Source of the DNA: Picochlorum sp. SENEW3
Taxonomy: Eukaryota
Direction of reading: 5' to 3'
NCBI GenBank assembly: GCA_034226945.1
Contig: CP120463.1
Location: 372,001-436,000, forward strand
DNA length: 64,000 bases
The notes beneath the pieces were generated by a model. That model was given only the letters and a program-made list of their open reading frames with translations. It was not told the DNA's origin and searched no databases. Both the position numbers and the translations under genes were made by a program. Shown here piece after piece: positions 52,831 through 61,543 of this stretch (the first letter of the stretch is position 1; every line of letters begins with the position of its first letter).

Positions 52831-55125
52831 CTAGCTAATATAGAGTTCATGTGCTGTCAACTGCTTTTGAGCATTCATATCAAGGAACCCATTGTAATTG
52901 AGTTTGAGAAGTAATCTCCTAATGGCTTCACCTCGTCGTTTCGACTGCAGCTGATTCGATTGTAGCAGCTGATAAAACACATTATACTTTGCTAAGAACG
53001 AGGCGTACATATCATCAAATCCTTGATCTGAACCAGATGTACTGAGTGTATTCAGATCTTTTACGAATGAAAACATTGCCTCCAGGACACCCATGACTTG
53101 TTTCACATCCAAACATGACACCTCGATAATATCAGTGAGATACTCTTCGTGCTTTAATTCTGCATCGATCAGAGATGACGATGTCGATAGAATATCATGA
53201 ATTCTGCTCGAACTATGTGAAACAATCTCAGATTGAAGAAACATGGCATAGGTAGATAGCAAATGATATAGCTGATGATGCATTGCTACCATCTTCCTTC
53301 CAGTTGATTTCACTCTTGATTTTCTCATTTCCTGCCTCACTGTTTTCATGGTGTATAATGCTCTACTGAGTCTGAACATGAGCTGCCAGAGAGCGCCATA
53401 CCGCCTTGTGAATTTGACAGGAAACACCAAATGCATTGGCCATTGCATGGTATATTCAATGCATAAACCGTCCCATTCATCATACGATGGAACAAAAATA
53501 GTATCATCATATGCTGGATGCCATACAGGGAGTAATTGAGAAGGGTTTGTCACATCATACCATACCATGCTGAAGTTGTCCAACTCTCCCGTGTCACCCA
53601 CATGAAACATGGCCTCTTGGAATGAACACGACGCACAGGCAGACGCCCTCTCAGGTACAGGCGGTTCTGTATATATTGTCGAGTCGTTCATCCTCTCGAT
53701 TAAATCTGCATATAAAGCTCCTCTATTCTGCAGAATCAGATCTACAAAACTGCCAATTTGTCCCTCAATATTTCCATAGGCATACATCTCGTTCCACACC
53801 ATCTCAGATAATTGAACCTTTCTATCATACACAAGTTTCTTCACATATGCCCAATCAATCAAGTCTTTCGAAAATGCGCCCCATAATCGACGCCCAAAAG
53901 TATCCTCTACAGACAAGCTTCCCTGTGTTGCATGCTGGAATGAGTCAAGTATCCGAGTGTACTGCCCCACATACAAAATATCACGAGCCAACCCTAACGA
54001 TACGACACCAGGAATCCTTGAGGATAATATATTTGCAGACTGAGACGCTTGAGCCAGTCGAATATGCTGATTCATACCCCTCTTCCCTGCATGCGAATAC
54101 TGTGGACCCTTGACCCCTTCAATATGAATAAAAAAGTCATTTGATGGATCCAAAAGCCTTCCATACACAGCCCACGAGTATATCTGTTTACATAAAACCT
54201 GATAACAATGCCATCTGATTCTCTCTGAACACCCTTCTACGATTGGAATGCCAGTCTGGGCATTCTGCTCAAACAGATGAAGAACCTCTGCTCCAATCAT
54301 TGCATCCTCCGAATCCTTCAATACATGTACCTGACGAGCCAGAAATGGAAATAATTCAAAAAACTCACTCAAAGCCCTCTCCAGTGGAAACATGGACCGC
54401 AAACAGTTTGCAGAAACAACACATTCCTCCAACTTGACCACAGCATCCCTATACACATCCAACACCTCCATCAACCCTTGGCCCACAGCCGCATGATACG
54501 GCATCGACACCCGTAAAGCACCGTCTTTCAGCACATCTACATGGCTGTGAGCATACTCGGATAAAACCCGGTAGTACGAGCCCAGCATGACAATCCGGTT
54601 CAACTGTTCCCGTTCAGCACTCGTCACCCAGTCTACATTCTCTGACAACTCTAAGCGATACGTCACTCGACCACATCCCTCTCCATTCATAGGTTCAGTA
54701 GAAACACTGTCATCCTTGTCCTGGCTGCCCTGTGTGTCAAAAGAATCGTCTTCTATTCGATTCCAGACAAAAGCACCCCCTCCACAGCCAACCAGACCGA
54801 GTAAGAGCTCAGGAATGAGATTCTTCCAACCAGGTACATCATCTATACCTTCATATTGTGTCATTGTATTTTTGATATCAGACAAGCGCCTGTTCTGGAC
54901 ACTTGAATGGCCTCCAGTTGATTTTAATGTTCTATTTACAGACATATCCATCCATCCAGATGGATAGACCAATAGGAGTGTATTCAGTGCCAAGGAGAGA
55001 CCATGCACGTATTCTAATCTATAATAATAGTCTTGATTGTACGGATTCCTACGTGGTACAGCAGTTAACGGTTGATAAAAGTCTTCGCAGTGGGATCGAT
55101 TGAACATTTCTTTGTTCAACAGCAT
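52831..55125 (-). CDS. GCP4: Gamma-tubulin complex component 4 (true start probably at a downstream ATG)
   Basis: LIPELLLGLVG, YRDAVVKLE, SWAVYGRLLDPSNDFFI, ILYVG, YTMQWPMHLVF...YGALWQLMFRL and C-terminal LLLKLNYN. Confidence 0.85.
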   Translation of the reverse strand: MLLNKEMFNRSHCEDFYQPLTAVPRRNPYNQDYYYRLEYVHGLSLALNTLLLVYPSGWMDMSVNRTLKSTGGHSSVQNRRLSDIKNTMTQYEGIDDVPGWKNLIPELLLGLVGCGGGAFVWNRIEDDSFDTQGSQDKDDSVSTEPMNGEGCGRVTYRLELSENVDWVTSAEREQLNRIVMLGSYYRVLSEYAHSHVDVLKDGALRVSMPYHAAVGQGLMEVLDVYRDAVVKLEECVVSANCLRSMFPLERALSEFFELFPFLARQVHVLKDSEDAMIGAEVLHLFEQNAQTGIPIVEGCSERIRWHCYQVLCKQIYSWAVYGRLLDPSNDFFIHIEGVKGPQYSHAGKRGMNQHIRLAQASQSANILSSRIPGVVSLGLARDILYVGQYTRILDSFQHATQGSLSVEDTFGRRLWGAFSKDLIDWAYVKKLVYDRKVQLSEMVWNEMYAYGNIEGQIGSFVDLILQNRGALYADLIERMNDSTIYTEPPVPERASACASCSFQEAMFHVGDTGELDNFSMVWYDVTNPSQLLPVWHPAYDDTIFVPSYDEWDGLCIEYTMQWPMHLVFPVKFTRRYGALWQLMFRLSRALYTMKTVRQEMRKSRVKSTGRKMVAMHHQLYHLLSTYAMFLQSEIVSHSSSRIHDILSTSSSLIDAELKHEEYLTDIIEVSCLDVKQVMGVLEAMFSFVKDLNTLSTSGSDQGFDDMYASFLAKYNVFYQLLQSNQLQSKRRGEAIRRLLLKLNYNGFLDMNAQKQLTAHELYIS

Positions 55126-55228
55126 ACAGTGAACGGATTATTCTAGTATTAGTCACTTTATATTCATATTTTTAAATTGCATACTACAGAAGCACAGGGA
55201 AGTGCTGAAGAAGGCAGATACGAGTATC

Positions 55229-58200
55229 ATGTCTCCGTCGGCCACAGAGATGTTTGCTCGTCTCGTGCGTGAGCATCCTTTGGTGCTCGCGGGAGGAATA
55301 GTTGTTTTAATTCCAGCGGTTGTTCTGTTTGGCATGTCGTTTCTTCTATTGGTGTCAGCGCTGGTGATTCCAATGCTGATTCCAGTCGTGGCTATAGCTG
55401 GGGTGCGTTTTTGGATGATGTTTTTGATGCGTGATCGAGTATCGGTCGCTGATGCGTGTCTTGTATCGTAGGGTGCTATATATATGGGGCAAGGGGATGC
55501 TCTGCTAGAGATTGGAAGGCATGTGCTCCAGAGCGTGAATAATTTGGGTGCTAGATTAGTGAGTGGTGCTGAGGAGCAGAGTGCAGCTGATGAGCAGGCA
55601 CCTCCTGCTCCGGTTCCAACGTACCGTGTTCACGACGAGTCTTCGTCGTTGAAGAAGAGTGATGCGTTCGACAAGCTGGATGCGTTGATGCAAGAGCGCA
55701 TCATGTTCATCGATGGCGCCATGGGCACCCAAATCCAAAAGTGGAAGCTGCAGGAGGAGGACTTCCGTGGGGAGCGGTACAAGGACCACAAGGACGAGCT
55801 GAAGGGGAACAACGACATCCTTGTGATCGCGCGTCCAGATGTGGTGGAGTCGATCCACAATGCGTTTTTGGAGGCTGGTGCCGACATCATTGAGACCAAC
55901 ACGTTCAATGGCACCACCATCTCTCAGGCTGACTACTCTCTGGACCAGAAAGAGGAGGTGGACCTGATCAACCGCACCGCCGCCCAGGTGGCGAAGAAGT
56001 GCACCAAGGCGTACATGGAGGCTCATCCCGGGAGCGTGAAGTTTGTGGCTGGGGCGATCGGCCCCACCAACAAGACGCTGAGTGTGTCTCCCAGCGTGGA
56101 GAACCCAGCGCTTCGTGGCATCACGTTTGACGAGGTGGCGCAGGCGTACTACGAGCAGGCGATCGCGCTGTACGACGGCGGCGTTGACGTCTTCTTGGTG
56201 GAGACCATTTTCGACACAGGGAATGCGCGCGCGGCTCTGTACGCCCTTGACAAGTTCTTCAAGGAGAAGGGGGTGCGCATCCCAGTGTTTGTGTCTGGCA
56301 CGATTGTGGACAACTCTGGCCGCACGCTGAGCGGTCAGACCAACGAGGCATTCTGGAACAGCATCTCTCATGCCAAGCCGTATGCAGTTGGTCTGAACTG
56401 TGCCCTTGGCGCCAAGGACATGAAGCAGTACATTGCCAATTTGAGCCGGTGTGCGGACTGCTACGTGTTCTGCTACCCGAATGCTGGGTTGCCGAACGCG
56501 ATGGGCGGGTACGACCAGGGCGGCCCGGAGATGGGTGAAGAAGTACGTCCATTCTGCGAGGAGGGTCTCGTGAATGCGATTGGGGGCTGCTGCGGCACCG
56601 GCCCAGAGCACATTGCTGCCATCAAGAAGGTGGCCTCCGAGTATGCTCCACGTCAGAAGCACCCTGTGGAAGACATCATGCGCTTGAGCGGTCTTGAGCC
56701 TCTGAACTACCGTCCAAAGGAGGATGACATGCGGTCGACGTTCCTGAAGATTGGGGAGCGTTGCAACGTGGCTGGGTCACGCATCTACAAGAAGGCTATT
56801 GTGGACGGAGATTACGACAAGGCTCTTGGCATTGCGGTGTCCCAGGTGAACCAGGGGGCTGACATCTTGGATATCAACATGGACGACGGTTTGATTGAGG
56901 GTGTGTCTGCGATGACGCGTTTCGTGAACCTGTTGGTGTCTGATCCAGAGGTTTCCCGCGTCCCATTCATGATTGACTCGTCCAAGTTCCACATTGTGGA
57001 GGCTGGGATCAAGTGCTGCCAGGGCAAGTGCATCGTCAATTCTATCTCGATGAAAGAGGGCGAGGACAAGTTCAGAGAGCAAGCATCTGAGATTCGTCGC
57101 CACGGGGCTGCTGTGGTGGTGATGGCGTTCGACGAGGAGGGCCAGGCGGCGACGTGTGAAGACAAGGTCCGCATCTGCACTCGCGCATATCGCATTTTGG
57201 TCGAGGAGGTCGGTTTCAACTCTCAGGACATCATTTTCGATCCAAACATTTTGACTGTTGGTACTGGTCTGGCAGAGCACAACAACTATGCGGTTGACTT
57301 CATCCGTGCCACGTCAGAGATCAAGCGCCTGTGCCCCGGGGCCAAGGTGTCTGGTGGTGTGTCAAACATTGCCTTTTCCTTCCGCGGGAACGAGCCAGTC
57401 CGCCGTGCCTTCCACTCCTCATTCCTTCATCATGCTTGCAAGGCTGGTATGGACATGGGTATTGTGAATGCCAAGCAAGTCCAGGAGGACGTGTATGAGA
57501 AGATTGACAAGGAGCTGCTAGAGATGGTGGAGGATGTTCTGTTGAACAGGAGGGATGATGCAACCGAGAGACTCCTTGAATATGCGGCTACGCTTGACCC
57601 CAAGAGTACTCCAACAAACGTCAAAAAGCTCAATGCTGGGCCAGTGTTGCCTGAGAAGGTCAACCCTATTCCCAAGGGATTCGATCCGCTCGCTCCACCA
57701 GAGAACTTGCCACCAGTCCCAACGTACCGTGTTCACGACGAGTCTTCGTCGTTGAAGAAGAGTGATGCGTTCGACAAGCTGGATGCGTTGATGCAAGAGC
57801 GCATCATGTTCATCGATGGCGCCATGGGCACCCAAATCCAAAAGTGGAAGCTGCAGGAGGAGGACTTCCGTGGGGAGCGGTACAAGGACCACAAGGACGA
57901 GCTGAAGGGGAACAACGACATCCTTGTGATCGCGCGTCCAGATGTGGTGGAGTCGATCCACAATGCGTTTTTGGAGGCTGGTGCCGACATCATTGAGACC
58001 AACACGTTCAATGGCACCACCATCTCTCAGGCTGACTACTCTCTGGACCAGAAAGAGGAGGTGGACCTGATCAACCGCACCGCCGCCCAGGTGGCGAAGA
58101 AGTGCACCAAGGCGTACATGGAGGCTCATCCCGGGAGCGTGAAGTTTGTGGCTGGGGCGATCGGCCCCACCAACAAGACGCTGAGTGTGTCTCCCAGCGT

Positions 58201-61200
58201 GGAGAACCCAGCGCTTCGTGGCATCACGTTTGACGAGGTGGCGCAGGCGTACTACGAGCAGGCGATCGCGCTGTACGACGGCGGCGTTGACGTCTTCTTG
58301 GTGGAGACCATTTTCGACACAGGGAATGCGCGCGCGGCTCTGTACGCCCTTGACAAGTTCTTCAAGGAGAAGGGGGTGCGCATCCCAGTGTTTGTGTCTG
58401 GCACGATTGTGGACAACTCTGGCCGCACGCTGAGCGGTCAGACCAACGAGGCATTCTGGAACAGCATCTCTCATGCCAAGCCGTATGCAGTTGGTCTGAA
58501 CTGTGCCCTTGGCGCCAAGGACATGAAGCAGTACATTGCCAATTTGAGCCGGTGTGCGGACTGCTACGTGTTCTGCTACCCGAATGCTGGGTTGCCGAAC
58601 GCGATGGGCGGGTACGACCAGGGCGGCCCGGAGATGGGTGAAGAAGTACGTCCATTCTGCGAGGAGGGTCTCGTGAATGCGATTGGGGGCTGCTGCGGCA
58701 CCGGCCCAGAGCACATTGCTGCCATCAAGAAGGTGGCCTCCGAGTATGCTCCACGTCAGAAGCACCCTGTGGAAGACATCATGCGCTTGAGCGGTCTTGA
58801 GCCTCTGAACTACCGTCCAAAGGAGGATGACATGCGGTCGACGTTCCTGAAGATTGGGGAGCGTTGCAACGTGGCTGGGTCACGCATCTACAAGAAGGCT
58901 ATTGTGGACGGAGATTACGACAAGGCTCTTGGCATTGCGGTGTCCCAGGTGAACCAGGGGGCTGACATCTTGGATATCAACATGGACGACGGTTTGATTG
59001 AGGGTGTGTCTGCGATGACGCGTTTCGTGAACCTGTTGGTGTCTGATCCAGAGGTTTCCCGCGTCCCATTCATGATTGACTCGTCCAAGTTCCACATTGT
59101 GGAGGCTGGGATCAAGTGCTGCCAGGGCAAGTGCATCGTCAATTCTATCTCGATGAAAGAGGGCGAGGACAAGTTCAGAGAGCAAGCATCTGAGATTCGT
59201 CGCCACGGGGCTGCTGTGGTGGTGATGGCGTTCGACGAGGAGGGCCAGGCGGCGACGTGTGAAGACAAGGTCCGCATCTGCACTCGCGCATATCGCATTT
59301 TGGTCGAGGAGGTCGGTTTCAACTCTCAGGACATCATTTTCGATCCAAACATTTTGACTGTTGGTACTGGTCTGGCAGAGCACAACAACTATGCGGTTGA
59401 CTTCATCCGTGCCACGTCAGAGATCAAGCGCCTGTGCCCTGGGGCCAAGGTGTCTGGTGGTGTGTCAAACATTGCCTTTTCCTTCCGCGGGAACGAGCCA
59501 GTCCGCCGTGCCTTCCACTCCTCATTCCTTCATCATGCTTGCAAGGCTGGTATGGACATGGGTATTGTGAATGCCAAGCAAGTCCAGGAGGACGTGTATG
59601 AGAAGATTGACAAGGAGCTGCTAGAGATGGTGGAGGATGTTCTGTTGAATCGTTGTGAGAATGCAACCGAGAGACTCCTTGAATATGCGGCTACGTTAGA
59701 TCCAAAGAGTACACCCACGAATGTGAGAAGAAAGGGGGAGAGCGACAATTCATCTTCAGATAAGAAGACTGGTGACTCATGGAGAGATTTACCTGTTGAG
59801 AAACGTATTGAGCATGCCCTTATCAAAGGTATTGATGCCCATGTGGTGGCTGATACAGAGGAAGCTCGTGTGTCTGGCCGTTACCCAGAGCCTTTGAATG
59901 TTATTGAAGGTCCTCTCATGGATGGTATGAATGTTGTCGGGGATTTGTTTGGTGCGGGCAAAATGTTCTTGCCTCAGGTAATCAAATCTGCACGAGTGAT
60001 GAAGAAGGCTGTAGGCCACCTTATTCCGTTCATTGAGGAAGCGAAAAAGAATTCCGGAGTCACATCTGATAATGCTGGAGTAATAATTATGGCGACTGTT
60101 AAAGGAGACGTACATGACATTGGAAAGAATATTGTATCAGTTGTTCTGGGTTGCAATAATTTCAAAGTCATTGATGTAGGAGTCATGTGTCCATGGGAAA
60201 CCATTCTGGATGCAGCAGAGGAGCACAAGGCTGATATCATTGGTCTCTCCGGTCTGATCACTCCATCGTTGGACGAAATGGTCACTGTTGCAAAGAAAAT
60301 GGAAGAAAGAGGTTTGAGATTGCCACTGCTCATTGGTGGGGCAACCACATCAAAGATGCACACGGCTGTCAAGATTGCTCCGCAGTACTCAGGCTCAGTT
60401 GTGTATGTCCTCGATGCTTCTCGCTCTGTACCTGTGGTTCAGTCGCTGTTGGATCCTAACGCAACACAGGACTTCCAAGATGATGTTAGAGAACAGTATG
60501 AGGAATTGAGAGAGGAGTTCTATGCCGGCTTGGAAGATAGGACATACCTTACTCTGACGGATTGCCAGGCCAAGAAAATCCAGGTCGACTGGTCTTTGCC
60601 AGAGTATAAGCCTATCAGGCCTGCAATTCTGGGCACAAAAGTATTCAAAGATTATCCATTGGAAGAGGTCGTGCCTTACATTGATTGGAATCCTTTCTTC
60701 CAGGTATGGCAGCTGAGGGGAAGATATCCAAATAGAGGTTACCCCAAGATTTTCAAAGATGAGACTGTGGGAGCGGAAGCTAAGCGCCTGTTCGATGAGG
60801 CGCAGGAATTGCTGCAAAAAATTATCGATGGAAAACTCCTTACATTGGTGGGCATTGTCGGTTTGTATCCAGCAAATGCTATTGGGGATGATATTGAGGT
60901 GTATCAGGACGAGACGAGATCTGACATCATAGGCAAGTTCTATGGATTGCGTCAGCAAGCTGAGAAAGAGACAGAGGAACCATATACTTGCATCTCGGAT
61001 TTCATTGCTCCAAAAGACACTGGAATGGTGGACTATGTTGGGGCATTTGCAAACTCTGCTCTTGGGGTCGAAAAGCTCACAGAGGAGTATAAACAAGCTG
61101 GTGACGACTATAACTACATCATGGCAGAAGCACTTGCAGATCGTCTAGCAGAAGCATTTGCAGAGAAGTTGCATGAGGTGGTCCGCCAAGAGTTGTGGGG

Positions 61201-61543
61201 CTACTCAAAGGATGAGAAGCTCGATGTTGATGACCTGCTCAAGGTGAAATATCAAGGCATCCGTCCAGCAGCAGGATATCCATCACAACCAGATCATACA
61301 GAGAAAAAGACAATGTGGAACATGATGAATATCAAAGAAGAAATTGGCATGGATTTGACAGAGTCAATGGCCATGTTGCCAGCAGCCTCTGTGTCTGGTC
61401 TGTACTTTGCTGCTCCTCATTCGCATTACTTTGCTGTGGGTAAGATTACCCAGGATCAAGTTGTCGATTACGCAGAGAGAAAGAAGATGCCATTGGAAGA
61501 AGCAGAGAAGTGGCTTCGGCCAATGCTCAGTTATGAACCATAA
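55229..61543 (+). CDS. METH: Cobalamin-dependent methionine synthase with N-terminal hydrophobic extension and duplicated Hcy/pterin domains; exons 55229-55402 and 55472-61543 (~2,080 aa)
   Basis: DGAMGT, GLNC, GGCCGT and IGERCNV each occur twice. One cap/B12 domain ([32 protein letters not shown]) and one AdoMet activation domain (GIRPAAGYP). The GTGCGT...TCGTAG intron 55403-55471 joins the upstream hydrophobic ORF in frame. Confidence 0.93.
55616..59649. repeat. Near-perfect intragenic direct repeat: 55616-57546 vs 57719-59649 (offset 2103 bp)
   Basis: Copies read identical apart from one synonymous C/T that I found (57337/59440). Alternate-frame ORFs in the track recur at +2103. Homology decays over the following ~75 bp. 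Confidence 0.97.

Follow-up and report, generated by a model that had tools for sequence, protein, structure and literature searches.

A methionine synthase with two near-identical N-terminal halves on one cobalamin arm in Picochlorum sp. SENEW3, and its multi-headed relatives among algae

Cobalamin-dependent methionine synthase (MetH/METH, human MTR; EC 2.1.1.13) is the enzyme behind the B12 dependence of algae and a model for one cofactor travelling between distant active sites. Canonical proteins of ~1,230-1,270 amino acids hold a single copy of each module. In human MTR the N-terminal half, Cap-Cob and Act are independently moving modules (PMC13376404), and Cap:Cob can be served in trans by the Hcy:Fol didomain (10.1101/2024.08.29.610163). 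The closest described departure from this plan is METH of the diatom Phaeodactylum tricornutum (Phatr2 23399), in which the Hcy and pterin domains are doubled in frame and ESTs cover the second copy, and for which the paper asks for experimental verification (PMC4523565). In the literature text available to us, multi-headed METH appeared solely as this passing mention of one diatom (PMC4523565). The design seems to have gone nearly unremarked, apparently because short-read assemblies collapse the repeat.

We analyzed a window of 64,000 nucleotides from the alga Picochlorum sp. SENEW3, in which a stop-free frame on the + strand (55472-61543, 2,023 codons plus stop) contains the entire catalytic METH. 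Pfam matches S-methyl_trans and Pterin_bind twice each, and B12-binding_2, B12-binding and Met_synt_B12 once each, all five domains of the family being present in order and far above the curated cut-offs. Unit 1, the distal head (55616-57546), comprises a Hcy barrel at ~55706-56632 and a folate barrel at ~56753-57469, as delimited by repeat comparison, Pfam and motifs, and unit 2, the proximal head, has the same two barrels (57719-59649). Between them lie the first-unit end mark N-RRDD, a 16-residue copy of the Fol:Cap linker helix and a Pro-rich inter-unit tether (57547-57718), while unit 2 is followed by the later-unit end mark N-RCEN and the Fol:Cap linker up to the cap (59650-59797). The cap (PF02607, 59798-60022), the cobalamin-binding domain (PF02310, 60080-60364) and the AdoMet activation domain (PF02965, 60656-61486) are single; all these features are on the + strand. 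The cobalamin motif DxHxxG with its His ligand occurs once, as DVHDIGKN at aa 1546, and is identical in human MTR. The three cysteines of the Hcy barrel are zinc ligands, and their motifs are kept in both units (GLNCALG at aa 307 and 1008, GGCCG at aa 371 and 1072; the unit 1 cysteines are aa 310, 373 and 374 of the frame) and align to the same motifs of human MTR. The preliminary description of this locus had read from the letters an in-frame duplication of the Hcy and folate modules, zinc-binding motifs in both copies, copy ends diverged as RRDDAT and RCENAT, and a single cap, cobalamin and activation module behind them, and all of this is borne out here. The protein thus departs from the one-copy-per-module rule in having two N-halves, its family membership being unaffected, and the gene is the alga's only cobalamin-dependent METH, with the layout (putative) anchor-(Hcy-Fol)2-Cap-Cob-Act. 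No exact match to the protein, taken from its first in-frame ATG, was present in the protein collection.

The gene start very probably lies upstream of the long frame. A probable exon 1 of 58 codons (55229-55402, +), suggested by the sequence and by the N-termini of relatives, could be joined in frame through a probable phase-0 GT-AG intron of 69 nt (GTGCGT...TAG, 55403-55471, +) to the long exon, which would give a protein of ~2,081 aa; predicted proteins of relatives begin at the same junction or read through it.

At an offset of 2,103 nt the two units differ at one of 1,931 nucleotides (57337/59440, CCC/CCT, synonymous), and their cores are identical at 633 of 633 amino acids. Of the 26 codons that follow the identical block, 13 are not the same in both copies (9 synonymous, 4 nonsynonymous), so that in this genome synonymous divergence begins just beyond the repeat. 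Base composition changes at the same edges: GC3 is 0.74 in the repeat (475/644 codons, the value for unit 1) vs. 0.45 in the single-copy tail (284/630; p 1e-25), and stands at 0.44 in the codons before the repeat and 0.53 in the linker. A 5' codon gradient as the source of the high GC3 was ruled out because of these low values for the pre-repeat codons and the linker.

Architectures of the type Hcy-pterin-Hcy-pterin-B12, which the preliminary description had proposed looking for in chlorophyte proteomes, were found in many chlorophytes and beyond. With the window's protein included, 124 proteins follow the plan (Hcy-Fol)n-Cap-Cob-Act with n = 2-4 (n = 2 in 104, n = 3 in 18 and n = 4 in 2), and their hosts are chlorophytes, early streptophytes, stramenopiles and dinoflagellates. 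In every case it is the complete Hcy+Fol pair, together with the Fol:Cap helix, that is repeated, and five active-site motifs are kept in 267 of 270 units. Copy number varies inside genera (2 or 3 in each of Volvox, Chlorella, Chloropicon and Skeletonema), and one-headed METH bearing the first-unit mark is nested among green algae (Helicosporidium, Closterium). Many single-unit database entries look like collapsed repeats. A metagenome scan with the junction yielded 80 loci, none of which had two units, and the matches look bacterial. A simple explanation by B12 or oxygen does not match the distribution. The window genome also encodes the B12-independent METE, and Chlamydomonas has METE together with three Hcy domains in METH; mamiellophytes, which are reported to be without METE (PMC12458973), have n = 2. 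Two units are also found in the non-photosynthetic Hondaea and Mucochytrium, and the photosynthetic Closterium has one. The suggestion that the doubled head economizes scarce B12 finds no support in the distribution, METE being present in this genome and copy number not tracking METE loss.

In the tree, the units of all 39 multi-unit proteins cluster by protein. Within-protein unit identity has a median of 99.2% (100 pairs), vs. 68-92% to the window unit, and the best match of 237 of the 270 units lies within their own protein; the remaining 33 have it elsewhere, mostly in near-identical entries. Other parts of the gene keep a record of position. With near-duplicate entries included, the first unit ends in N-x-nonCys in 63 of 73 green proteins (the other 10 carry the later-unit mark there) and later units end in N-x-Cys in 86 of 90. 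An inter-unit linker homologous to that of the window was present in 90 of 90 green cases, so that it is not, as had been thought, unique, and its back end moreover repeats the PVP.Y stretch preceding unit 1. The homologous linker and the shared position mark indicate that the duplication predates speciations within green algae. Green linkers (median 66 aa) are unrelated at E < 0.001 to those of stramenopiles (median 124 aa), and across lineages the same layout is joined by three or four unrelated linkers. In both trees green, stramenopile and dinoflagellate METH are separate from each other and from the bacterial rows; these trees, with 8 bacterial rows and no animal or amoebozoan ones, do not decide between one and several origins. 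Drifted first units with 79-89% identity occur in Dunaliella, C. eustigma, Botryococcus and P0012, and could reflect specialization or lapsed conversion. Taken together, the grouping by protein, the conserved linker and mark and the GC3 step speak for an old duplication that conversion has held uniform and against an assembly error. We put at roughly 0.9 the probability of a genuine duplication that is ancient in green algae, with recurrent, GC-biased intragenic gene conversion homogenizing the heads while linker and position mark escape it. That the 99.95% identity of the copies reflects a misassembly of the window genome is scarcely credible given the orthologous linker and end marks in separate assemblies of close relatives (P0017, P0018, P0177-P0191) and in distant algae, the transcript-labeled proteins (P0142, P0165, P0299, P0042) in which two units, or the junction, are present, and the synonymous divergence and GC3 step at the repeat edges; an artifact could not create a conserved linker. 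With orthologs in dozens of separately made assemblies, the earlier argument against an assembly duplication is thereby strongly reinforced, while the breadth of the architecture, its concerted evolution and the N-terminal hydrophobic segment had all escaped a description that treated the gene as a local oddity.

This segment, 42 uncharged, Pro-kinked residues of the probable exon 1, reaches a best 19-residue hydropathy of 2.92. Values of at least 2.0 at the N-terminus were found in 51 of 60 green vs. 0 of 33 non-green proteins, and BLAST connects the window N-terminus weakly (E 0.047) to that of Nannochloris. We infer a membrane or lipid-monolayer anchor. The PxxxP motif, one half of a proline knot, is present in 24 of 34 N-terminal segments. 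The oleosin family profile had no match in 13 proteins scanned to E 5, and an identity or location as an oleosin-type lipid-droplet hairpin is unsupported. A term search of two algal droplet-proteome supplements returned METE in one and METH in neither, with two of the three "homocysteine" places covered in one file and the B12 status of the cultures as a caveat.

Structure models are in line with the canonical fold. The N-half superposes on that of human MTR with TM 0.94-0.95, and in the AlphaFold model unit 2, cap and B12 domain come close to 9CBR, the Hcy-on state (rmsd 4.5 over 860 columns), the B12 domain sitting on the proximal head. Multi-head runs (pTM 0.65 and 0.63) leave the next unit without a fixed place; confidence for the tether was 43-49 in one run and 62-85 in the other, and a complex prediction of Fol1 plus linker against unit 2, made without alignments, scored 0.02. 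According to a crude model, a tether of 65 residues would give an effective concentration of 0.05-1.9 mM at 4-8 nm. The likeliest function, to which we give about an even chance, is that extra tethered heads feed one scarce cobalamin. Every head would then be a working methyl-transfer half-enzyme, the tether or anchor keeping the distal one near a single Cap-Cob arm, a proposition on which we are equally divided. The flexible tether of ~65 residues could hold the distal head by the Cap-Cob arm of its own chain or, alternatively, the N-terminal anchor could gather neighboring chains on a membrane and bring it near their arms. Cobalamin might collect a methyl group at whichever barrel is loaded with folate and pass it to whichever is loaded with homocysteine, with more turnover per B12 and a shorter dwell as oxidation-prone cob(I)alamin, whose oxidation occurs about once per 2,000 turnovers (PMC10293825). 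The repeated piece is the very piece that works in trans, which we count in favor of working heads: at 2 μM, HcyFol, but not Hcy alone, consumed methylcobalamin on a separate CapCob (10.1101/2024.08.29.610163). That one cobalamin arm could serve two pairs of sites, as suggested earlier, is made plausible by this activity and by the independent movement of the human modules. However, conversion alone would preserve motifs in an idle head, so that their retention is no proof of use, and the cycle is limited by its single cobalamin unless the barrels are slow to be loaded or found.

Selection might also act on a distal head that hands no methyl group to its own arm and serves instead as a methyl-folate/homocysteine store or sensor, as an aid to uncapping or loading, or works on free or chaperone-bound cobalamin. 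Folate binding drives a conformational switch (PMC10293825), free methylcobalamin is consumed by HcyFol and by Hcy (10.1101/2024.08.29.610163), the position mark RR.D vs. RC.N suggests that the heads are not equivalent, and in the AlphaFold model the arm stays with the proximal head. We nevertheless consider such a role unlikely, since in most species both barrels are 99% identical between the copies and signs of specialization are confined to the end mark.

A neutral turnover of repeats, in which unequal crossing-over changes n, conversion preserves the copies and the extra heads are useless, would account for the differing n within four genera and for the one-headed forms with the first-unit mark inside green algae. 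But recombination between repeats would yield an intact, in-frame one-headed gene in a single step, and the persistence of n ≥ 2 from Prasinoderma and Mesostigma to Chlamydomonas, even in a 13.9-Mb genome, implies selection; with the conserved linker sequence and the recurrence of the layout with unrelated linkers, this makes neutrality distinctly unlikely. Quite improbable, too, is a processing of the chain by linker proteolysis or splicing that would release an Hcy-Fol half anchored in the membrane and a soluble METH of canonical form, so that N-halves would be in constant excess over B12 arms. In its favor, the linker is rich in Pro and predicted to be flexible, the putative anchor is found on unit 1 alone, the N-half is active in trans (10.1101/2024.08.29.610163) and the Phaeodactylum gene model read one copy as an in-frame intron (PMC4523565). 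Against it, two units are retained in transcript-derived proteins, and ESTs lie within the Phaeodactylum "intron" (PMC4523565).

Tethered working heads, our preferred function, are also part of a broader and more tentative proposal, to which we give less than an even chance: that multi-headed METH is the usual form in eukaryotic phytoplankton; that it has at least three independent origins, in green algae, stramenopiles and dinoflagellates, each of which has a linker of its own; that gene conversion has held it uniform since before the chlorophyte/streptophyte split; that it is membrane-anchored in green algae; and that one B12 serves 2-4 catalytic halves, the whole being a convergent structural adaptation to scarce B12 that collapsed assemblies have concealed. 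Natural enzymes with 2-4 N-halves per B12 arm make it testable whether turnover is limited by the arm or by the loading and finding of barrels. In proteomic and metatranscriptomic data, N-half peptides and reads count 2-4 times per METH molecule; for several algae, reference entries 1,270-1,440 aa long are probably the product of collapse, and trees based on the N-half mix converted copies.

Compared with MetH, METH and human MTR (PDB 9SSP, 8SSC, 9CBR), the window protein has the five Pfam domains of the family in unchanged order; its part starting with unit 2 matches residues 13-1275 of human MTR with 1,604 bits, the Hcy-Fol fold agreeing at TM 0.95. But MTR has one N-half, whereas the window METH has two (relatives up to four), a conserved tether and a probable N-terminal membrane anchor, and the 18 distinct MetH sequences found in the PDB are all ≤1,265 aa, as against 2,023 aa for the long frame. 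Cobalamin-independent METE is likewise an internally duplicated methionine synthase, with a double barrel from an ancient duplication whose barrels have long diverged and of which one is catalytic; it is an unrelated enzyme, however, and the algal METH copies are near-identical whole didomains. The doubling in Phaeodactylum was presented as a mutation in a single species that had been annotated as an intron, the accessible text of that paper being silent on breadth, n = 3-4, conversion and a position mark (PMC4523565). In methanogens, mtrA-1 and mtrA-2 form a corrinoid methyl-transfer duplicate whose catalytic part has been homogenized by very long-lasting gene conversion while the flanks stayed distinct (PMC4632066). 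There, two genes of an archaeal operon are involved and the corrinoid part is duplicated (PMC4632066), whereas algal METH is one eukaryotic frame in which the corrinoid part is single, and which offers a clear example of intragenic concerted evolution persisting over a long time in an enzyme of core metabolism.

The gene for cobalamin-dependent methionine synthase (METH) occupies a forward-strand frame open over 2,023 codons (55472-61543), within which unit 1 (55616-57546), a pair of homocysteine (Hcy) and folate (Fol, pterin) barrels, recurs as unit 2 (57719-59649) with 1 synonymous difference in 1,931 nt. Pfam places two homocysteine and two pterin domains ahead of cap, B12 and activation domains, one each. 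Frame, repeat and domain order bear out the in-frame duplication of both modules on one arm put forward in the preliminary description, and a motif scan confirms that both copies retain the cysteine motifs: these and the folate-pocket motifs occur in each unit, the His motif once. In all but module number the protein has the sequence features of a METH. It is the sole copy in the genome (13.9 Mb, 14 contigs), the one further match being a homocysteine-methyltransferase-like frame (31% identical), and in the unit tree it adjoins Nannochloris within Chlorellales. The cobalamin-independent enzyme (METE) is encoded too; its gene (contig G000:C7, about 369400-372500) is intron-split, with both Pfam halves and stop-free matched pieces (L004-L009). 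From translation, we take the neighbours to encode a gamma-tubulin-complex component-like protein (52831-55137, reverse strand, upstream, divergent) and a beta-tubulin-like protein (downstream of 61543, reverse strand, convergent); no link of either to METH was seen.

The preliminary description missed a probable first exon upstream (ATG at 55229, 58 codons, forward strand), which would encode a 42-residue uncharged stretch; a probable intron, judged from sequence (GT at 55403, AG at 55471), joins it in frame to the long frame. A strongly hydrophobic N-terminal stretch is present in 51 of 60 green METH proteins vs 0 of 33 non-green ones, with PxxxP in 24 of 34 once 17 near-duplicates are dropped. 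It matched no Pfam family, oleosin included, and is a putative membrane or monolayer anchor. A glycogen/starch-binding module (PF16561) precedes the Hcy barrel in the METH proteins P0125 (Mesostigma) and P0116-P0120 (Closterium and others); in Mesostigma it is duplicated along with each unit.

The two-unit copy number in SENEW3 rests on the genome assembly and on relatives' proteins, and an assembly artefact is very improbable. Immediately downstream of the identical stretch, 13 of 26 codons differ between the copies, 9 of these differences being synonymous. GC at third positions (GC3) is 475/644 in the repeat vs 284/630 (p 1e-25) in the single-copy tail; it is 0.44 ahead of the repeat and 0.53 across the linker. 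A scan of 19 other long frames in the window put 18 at 0.43-0.54, and the remaining one (0.64) overlaps one of these on the opposite strand. Since the step sits inside one frame, expression level does not account for it, and we infer GC-biased conversion between the copies. The most telling support for the earlier rejection of an assembly duplication comes from multi-unit relatives.

The proteome search suggested earlier for such layouts returned many, in green algae and beyond. A junction query gave 3,876 matches; of the best 120, at least 68 contain the full unit two or more times, among them proteins of Chlorella, Nannochloris, Parachlorella, Trebouxia, Botryococcus, Volvox, Chlamydomonas, Dunaliella, Ostreobium, Bryopsis, a pedinophyte and Chlorokybus. 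Through cluster look-ups, Bathycoccus, Prasinoderma and Chloropicon joined the list. A search of proteins >1,750 aa (120 of 166) added Haematococcus (four units), Mesostigma, stramenopiles (Nitzschia, Epithemia, Chrysophaeum, Hondaea, Mucochytrium) and dinoflagellates (Prorocentrum, Polarella), and other searches Skeletonema, Effrenium and Symbiodinium natans. With the window included, these junction and length searches give at least 124 multi-unit proteins (104 with two units, 18 with three, 2 with four), a count that includes near-duplicate entries and undercounts broken gene models. Transcriptome-labelled proteins contain two units (P0142, P0165, P0299) or the green junction (P0042). Human MTR and other solved METH sequences are single-headed, judged by length. 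In 80 bacterial loci no second unit lay within 4 kb, and a Bacteroidetes-query long-protein search (7,997 candidates scored; entries without names only partly classified) placed no named prokaryote in its top 120 of 164 matches. METH is a well-known enzyme; its multi-headed variant is real and widespread, and has hardly been described.

There is good support for both this architecture and its concerted evolution. A tree was built from 100 units of 43 chosen proteins, and in it all 39 multi-unit proteins group their own units (support 87-100, or identical); identity within a protein has a median of 99.2% and a minimum of 79% (100 pairs), and 237 of 270 units find their best match in their own protein, most of the other 33 pairing with near-identical entries. 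A single profile detects 90 of 90 green linkers (consensus end LPPVP.Y), and the residue two places past the folate barrel's last Asn is non-Cys in the first unit of 63 of 73 green proteins, whereas 86 of the 90 later ones have Cys there. Repeated recent duplications would not yield a common junction such as green algae have; the shared junction and mark indicate that the green duplication very probably predates the split of the sampled lineages, the heads having been homogenised since. Stramenopile, dinoflagellate and one further linker type (medians 124, 96 and 115 aa) show no cross-match at E < 0.001 (best 0.003), which suggests separate origins; a single origin with losses is also compatible with the trees. 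In five proteins (P0006, P0011, P0012, P0014, P0064) the first unit has diverged and is 79-89% identical to the others, as if conversion had lapsed or the distal head were specialising. P0016 and P0019 (Trebouxia sp. C0005 and C0006) and P0083, with three or two units, carry an identical shortened Hcy or pterin match per unit, either a gene-model error repeated per copy or a homogenised deletion.

Merged repeats may be the reason that the layout has been overlooked. Short and long relatives were compared in 12 hand-picked pairs: in 9, taking exactly one period from the long protein gives the short one; 2 more come within one residue of this and 1 is truncated. The later-unit Cys occurs in 24 of 35 single-unit entries, as expected if assemblers merged units or entries were cut short, and real one-unit alleles would look identical. 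Single-unit entries bearing the first-unit mark instead (Helicosporidium, Closterium) are possible true one-headed forms, some of them falling inside green algae in the tree; P0110 (Helicosporidium), P0092, P0106 and P0107, nested among chlorophytes, are candidate head losses.

The repeated piece is a full Hcy+Fol pair plus the start of the Fol:Cap linker, and the arm stays single except in one fragmented Symbiodinium model (4,119 aa) that repeats everything. Passages on Thermus MetH report a trans reaction between the cobalamin of a separate CapCob and HcyFol, though not Hcy by itself, with uncapping guided by Fol and its linker (10.1101/2024.08.29.610163); passages on human MTR describe independently acting modules (PMC13376404), and others put oxidation of cob(I)alamin at about once per 2,000 turnovers (PMC10293825). 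In AlphaFold models every unit folds like the human N-half and the arm docks onto the proximal head in a pose close to the Hcy-on state, with low or mixed tether confidence and no fixed head arrangement. A crude tether estimate ignoring orientation gives 0.05-1.9 mM at 4-8 nm, which exceeds the micromolar range of the trans assay. Together these favour, at a probability of roughly 0.5, the proposal that extra heads would feed the single arm, so that each B12 yields more product and cob(I)alamin is shorter-lived.

The earlier idea of one cobalamin arm serving two site pairs gains plausibility from the trans and tether data; the distribution does not support B12 economy. Two points weigh against the proposal: copy number follows neither METE loss nor photosynthesis, and conversion alone can keep an idle head intact. 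A head acting as store or sensor is a less probable alternative, neutral turnover of units is unlikely, and processing into two chains is a little less likely again.

Public databases already contain the long METH proteins, which bear ordinary names. The sole published mention found in the open literature is in passages of PMC4523565, which describe in a Phaeodactylum gene model an 'intron' of 2,280 bases that stays in frame and encodes a second MetH and pterin domain, EST-covered and with verification pending; a fuller description may exist. Main-text passages of PMC11439496, PMC11197592, PMC12458973, PMC11302038, PMC11244166 and PMC7455551 do not describe multi-headed METH. Among evolutionary parallels to its concertedly evolving units, the closest encountered is mtrA of methanogens, as presented in passages of PMC4632066.
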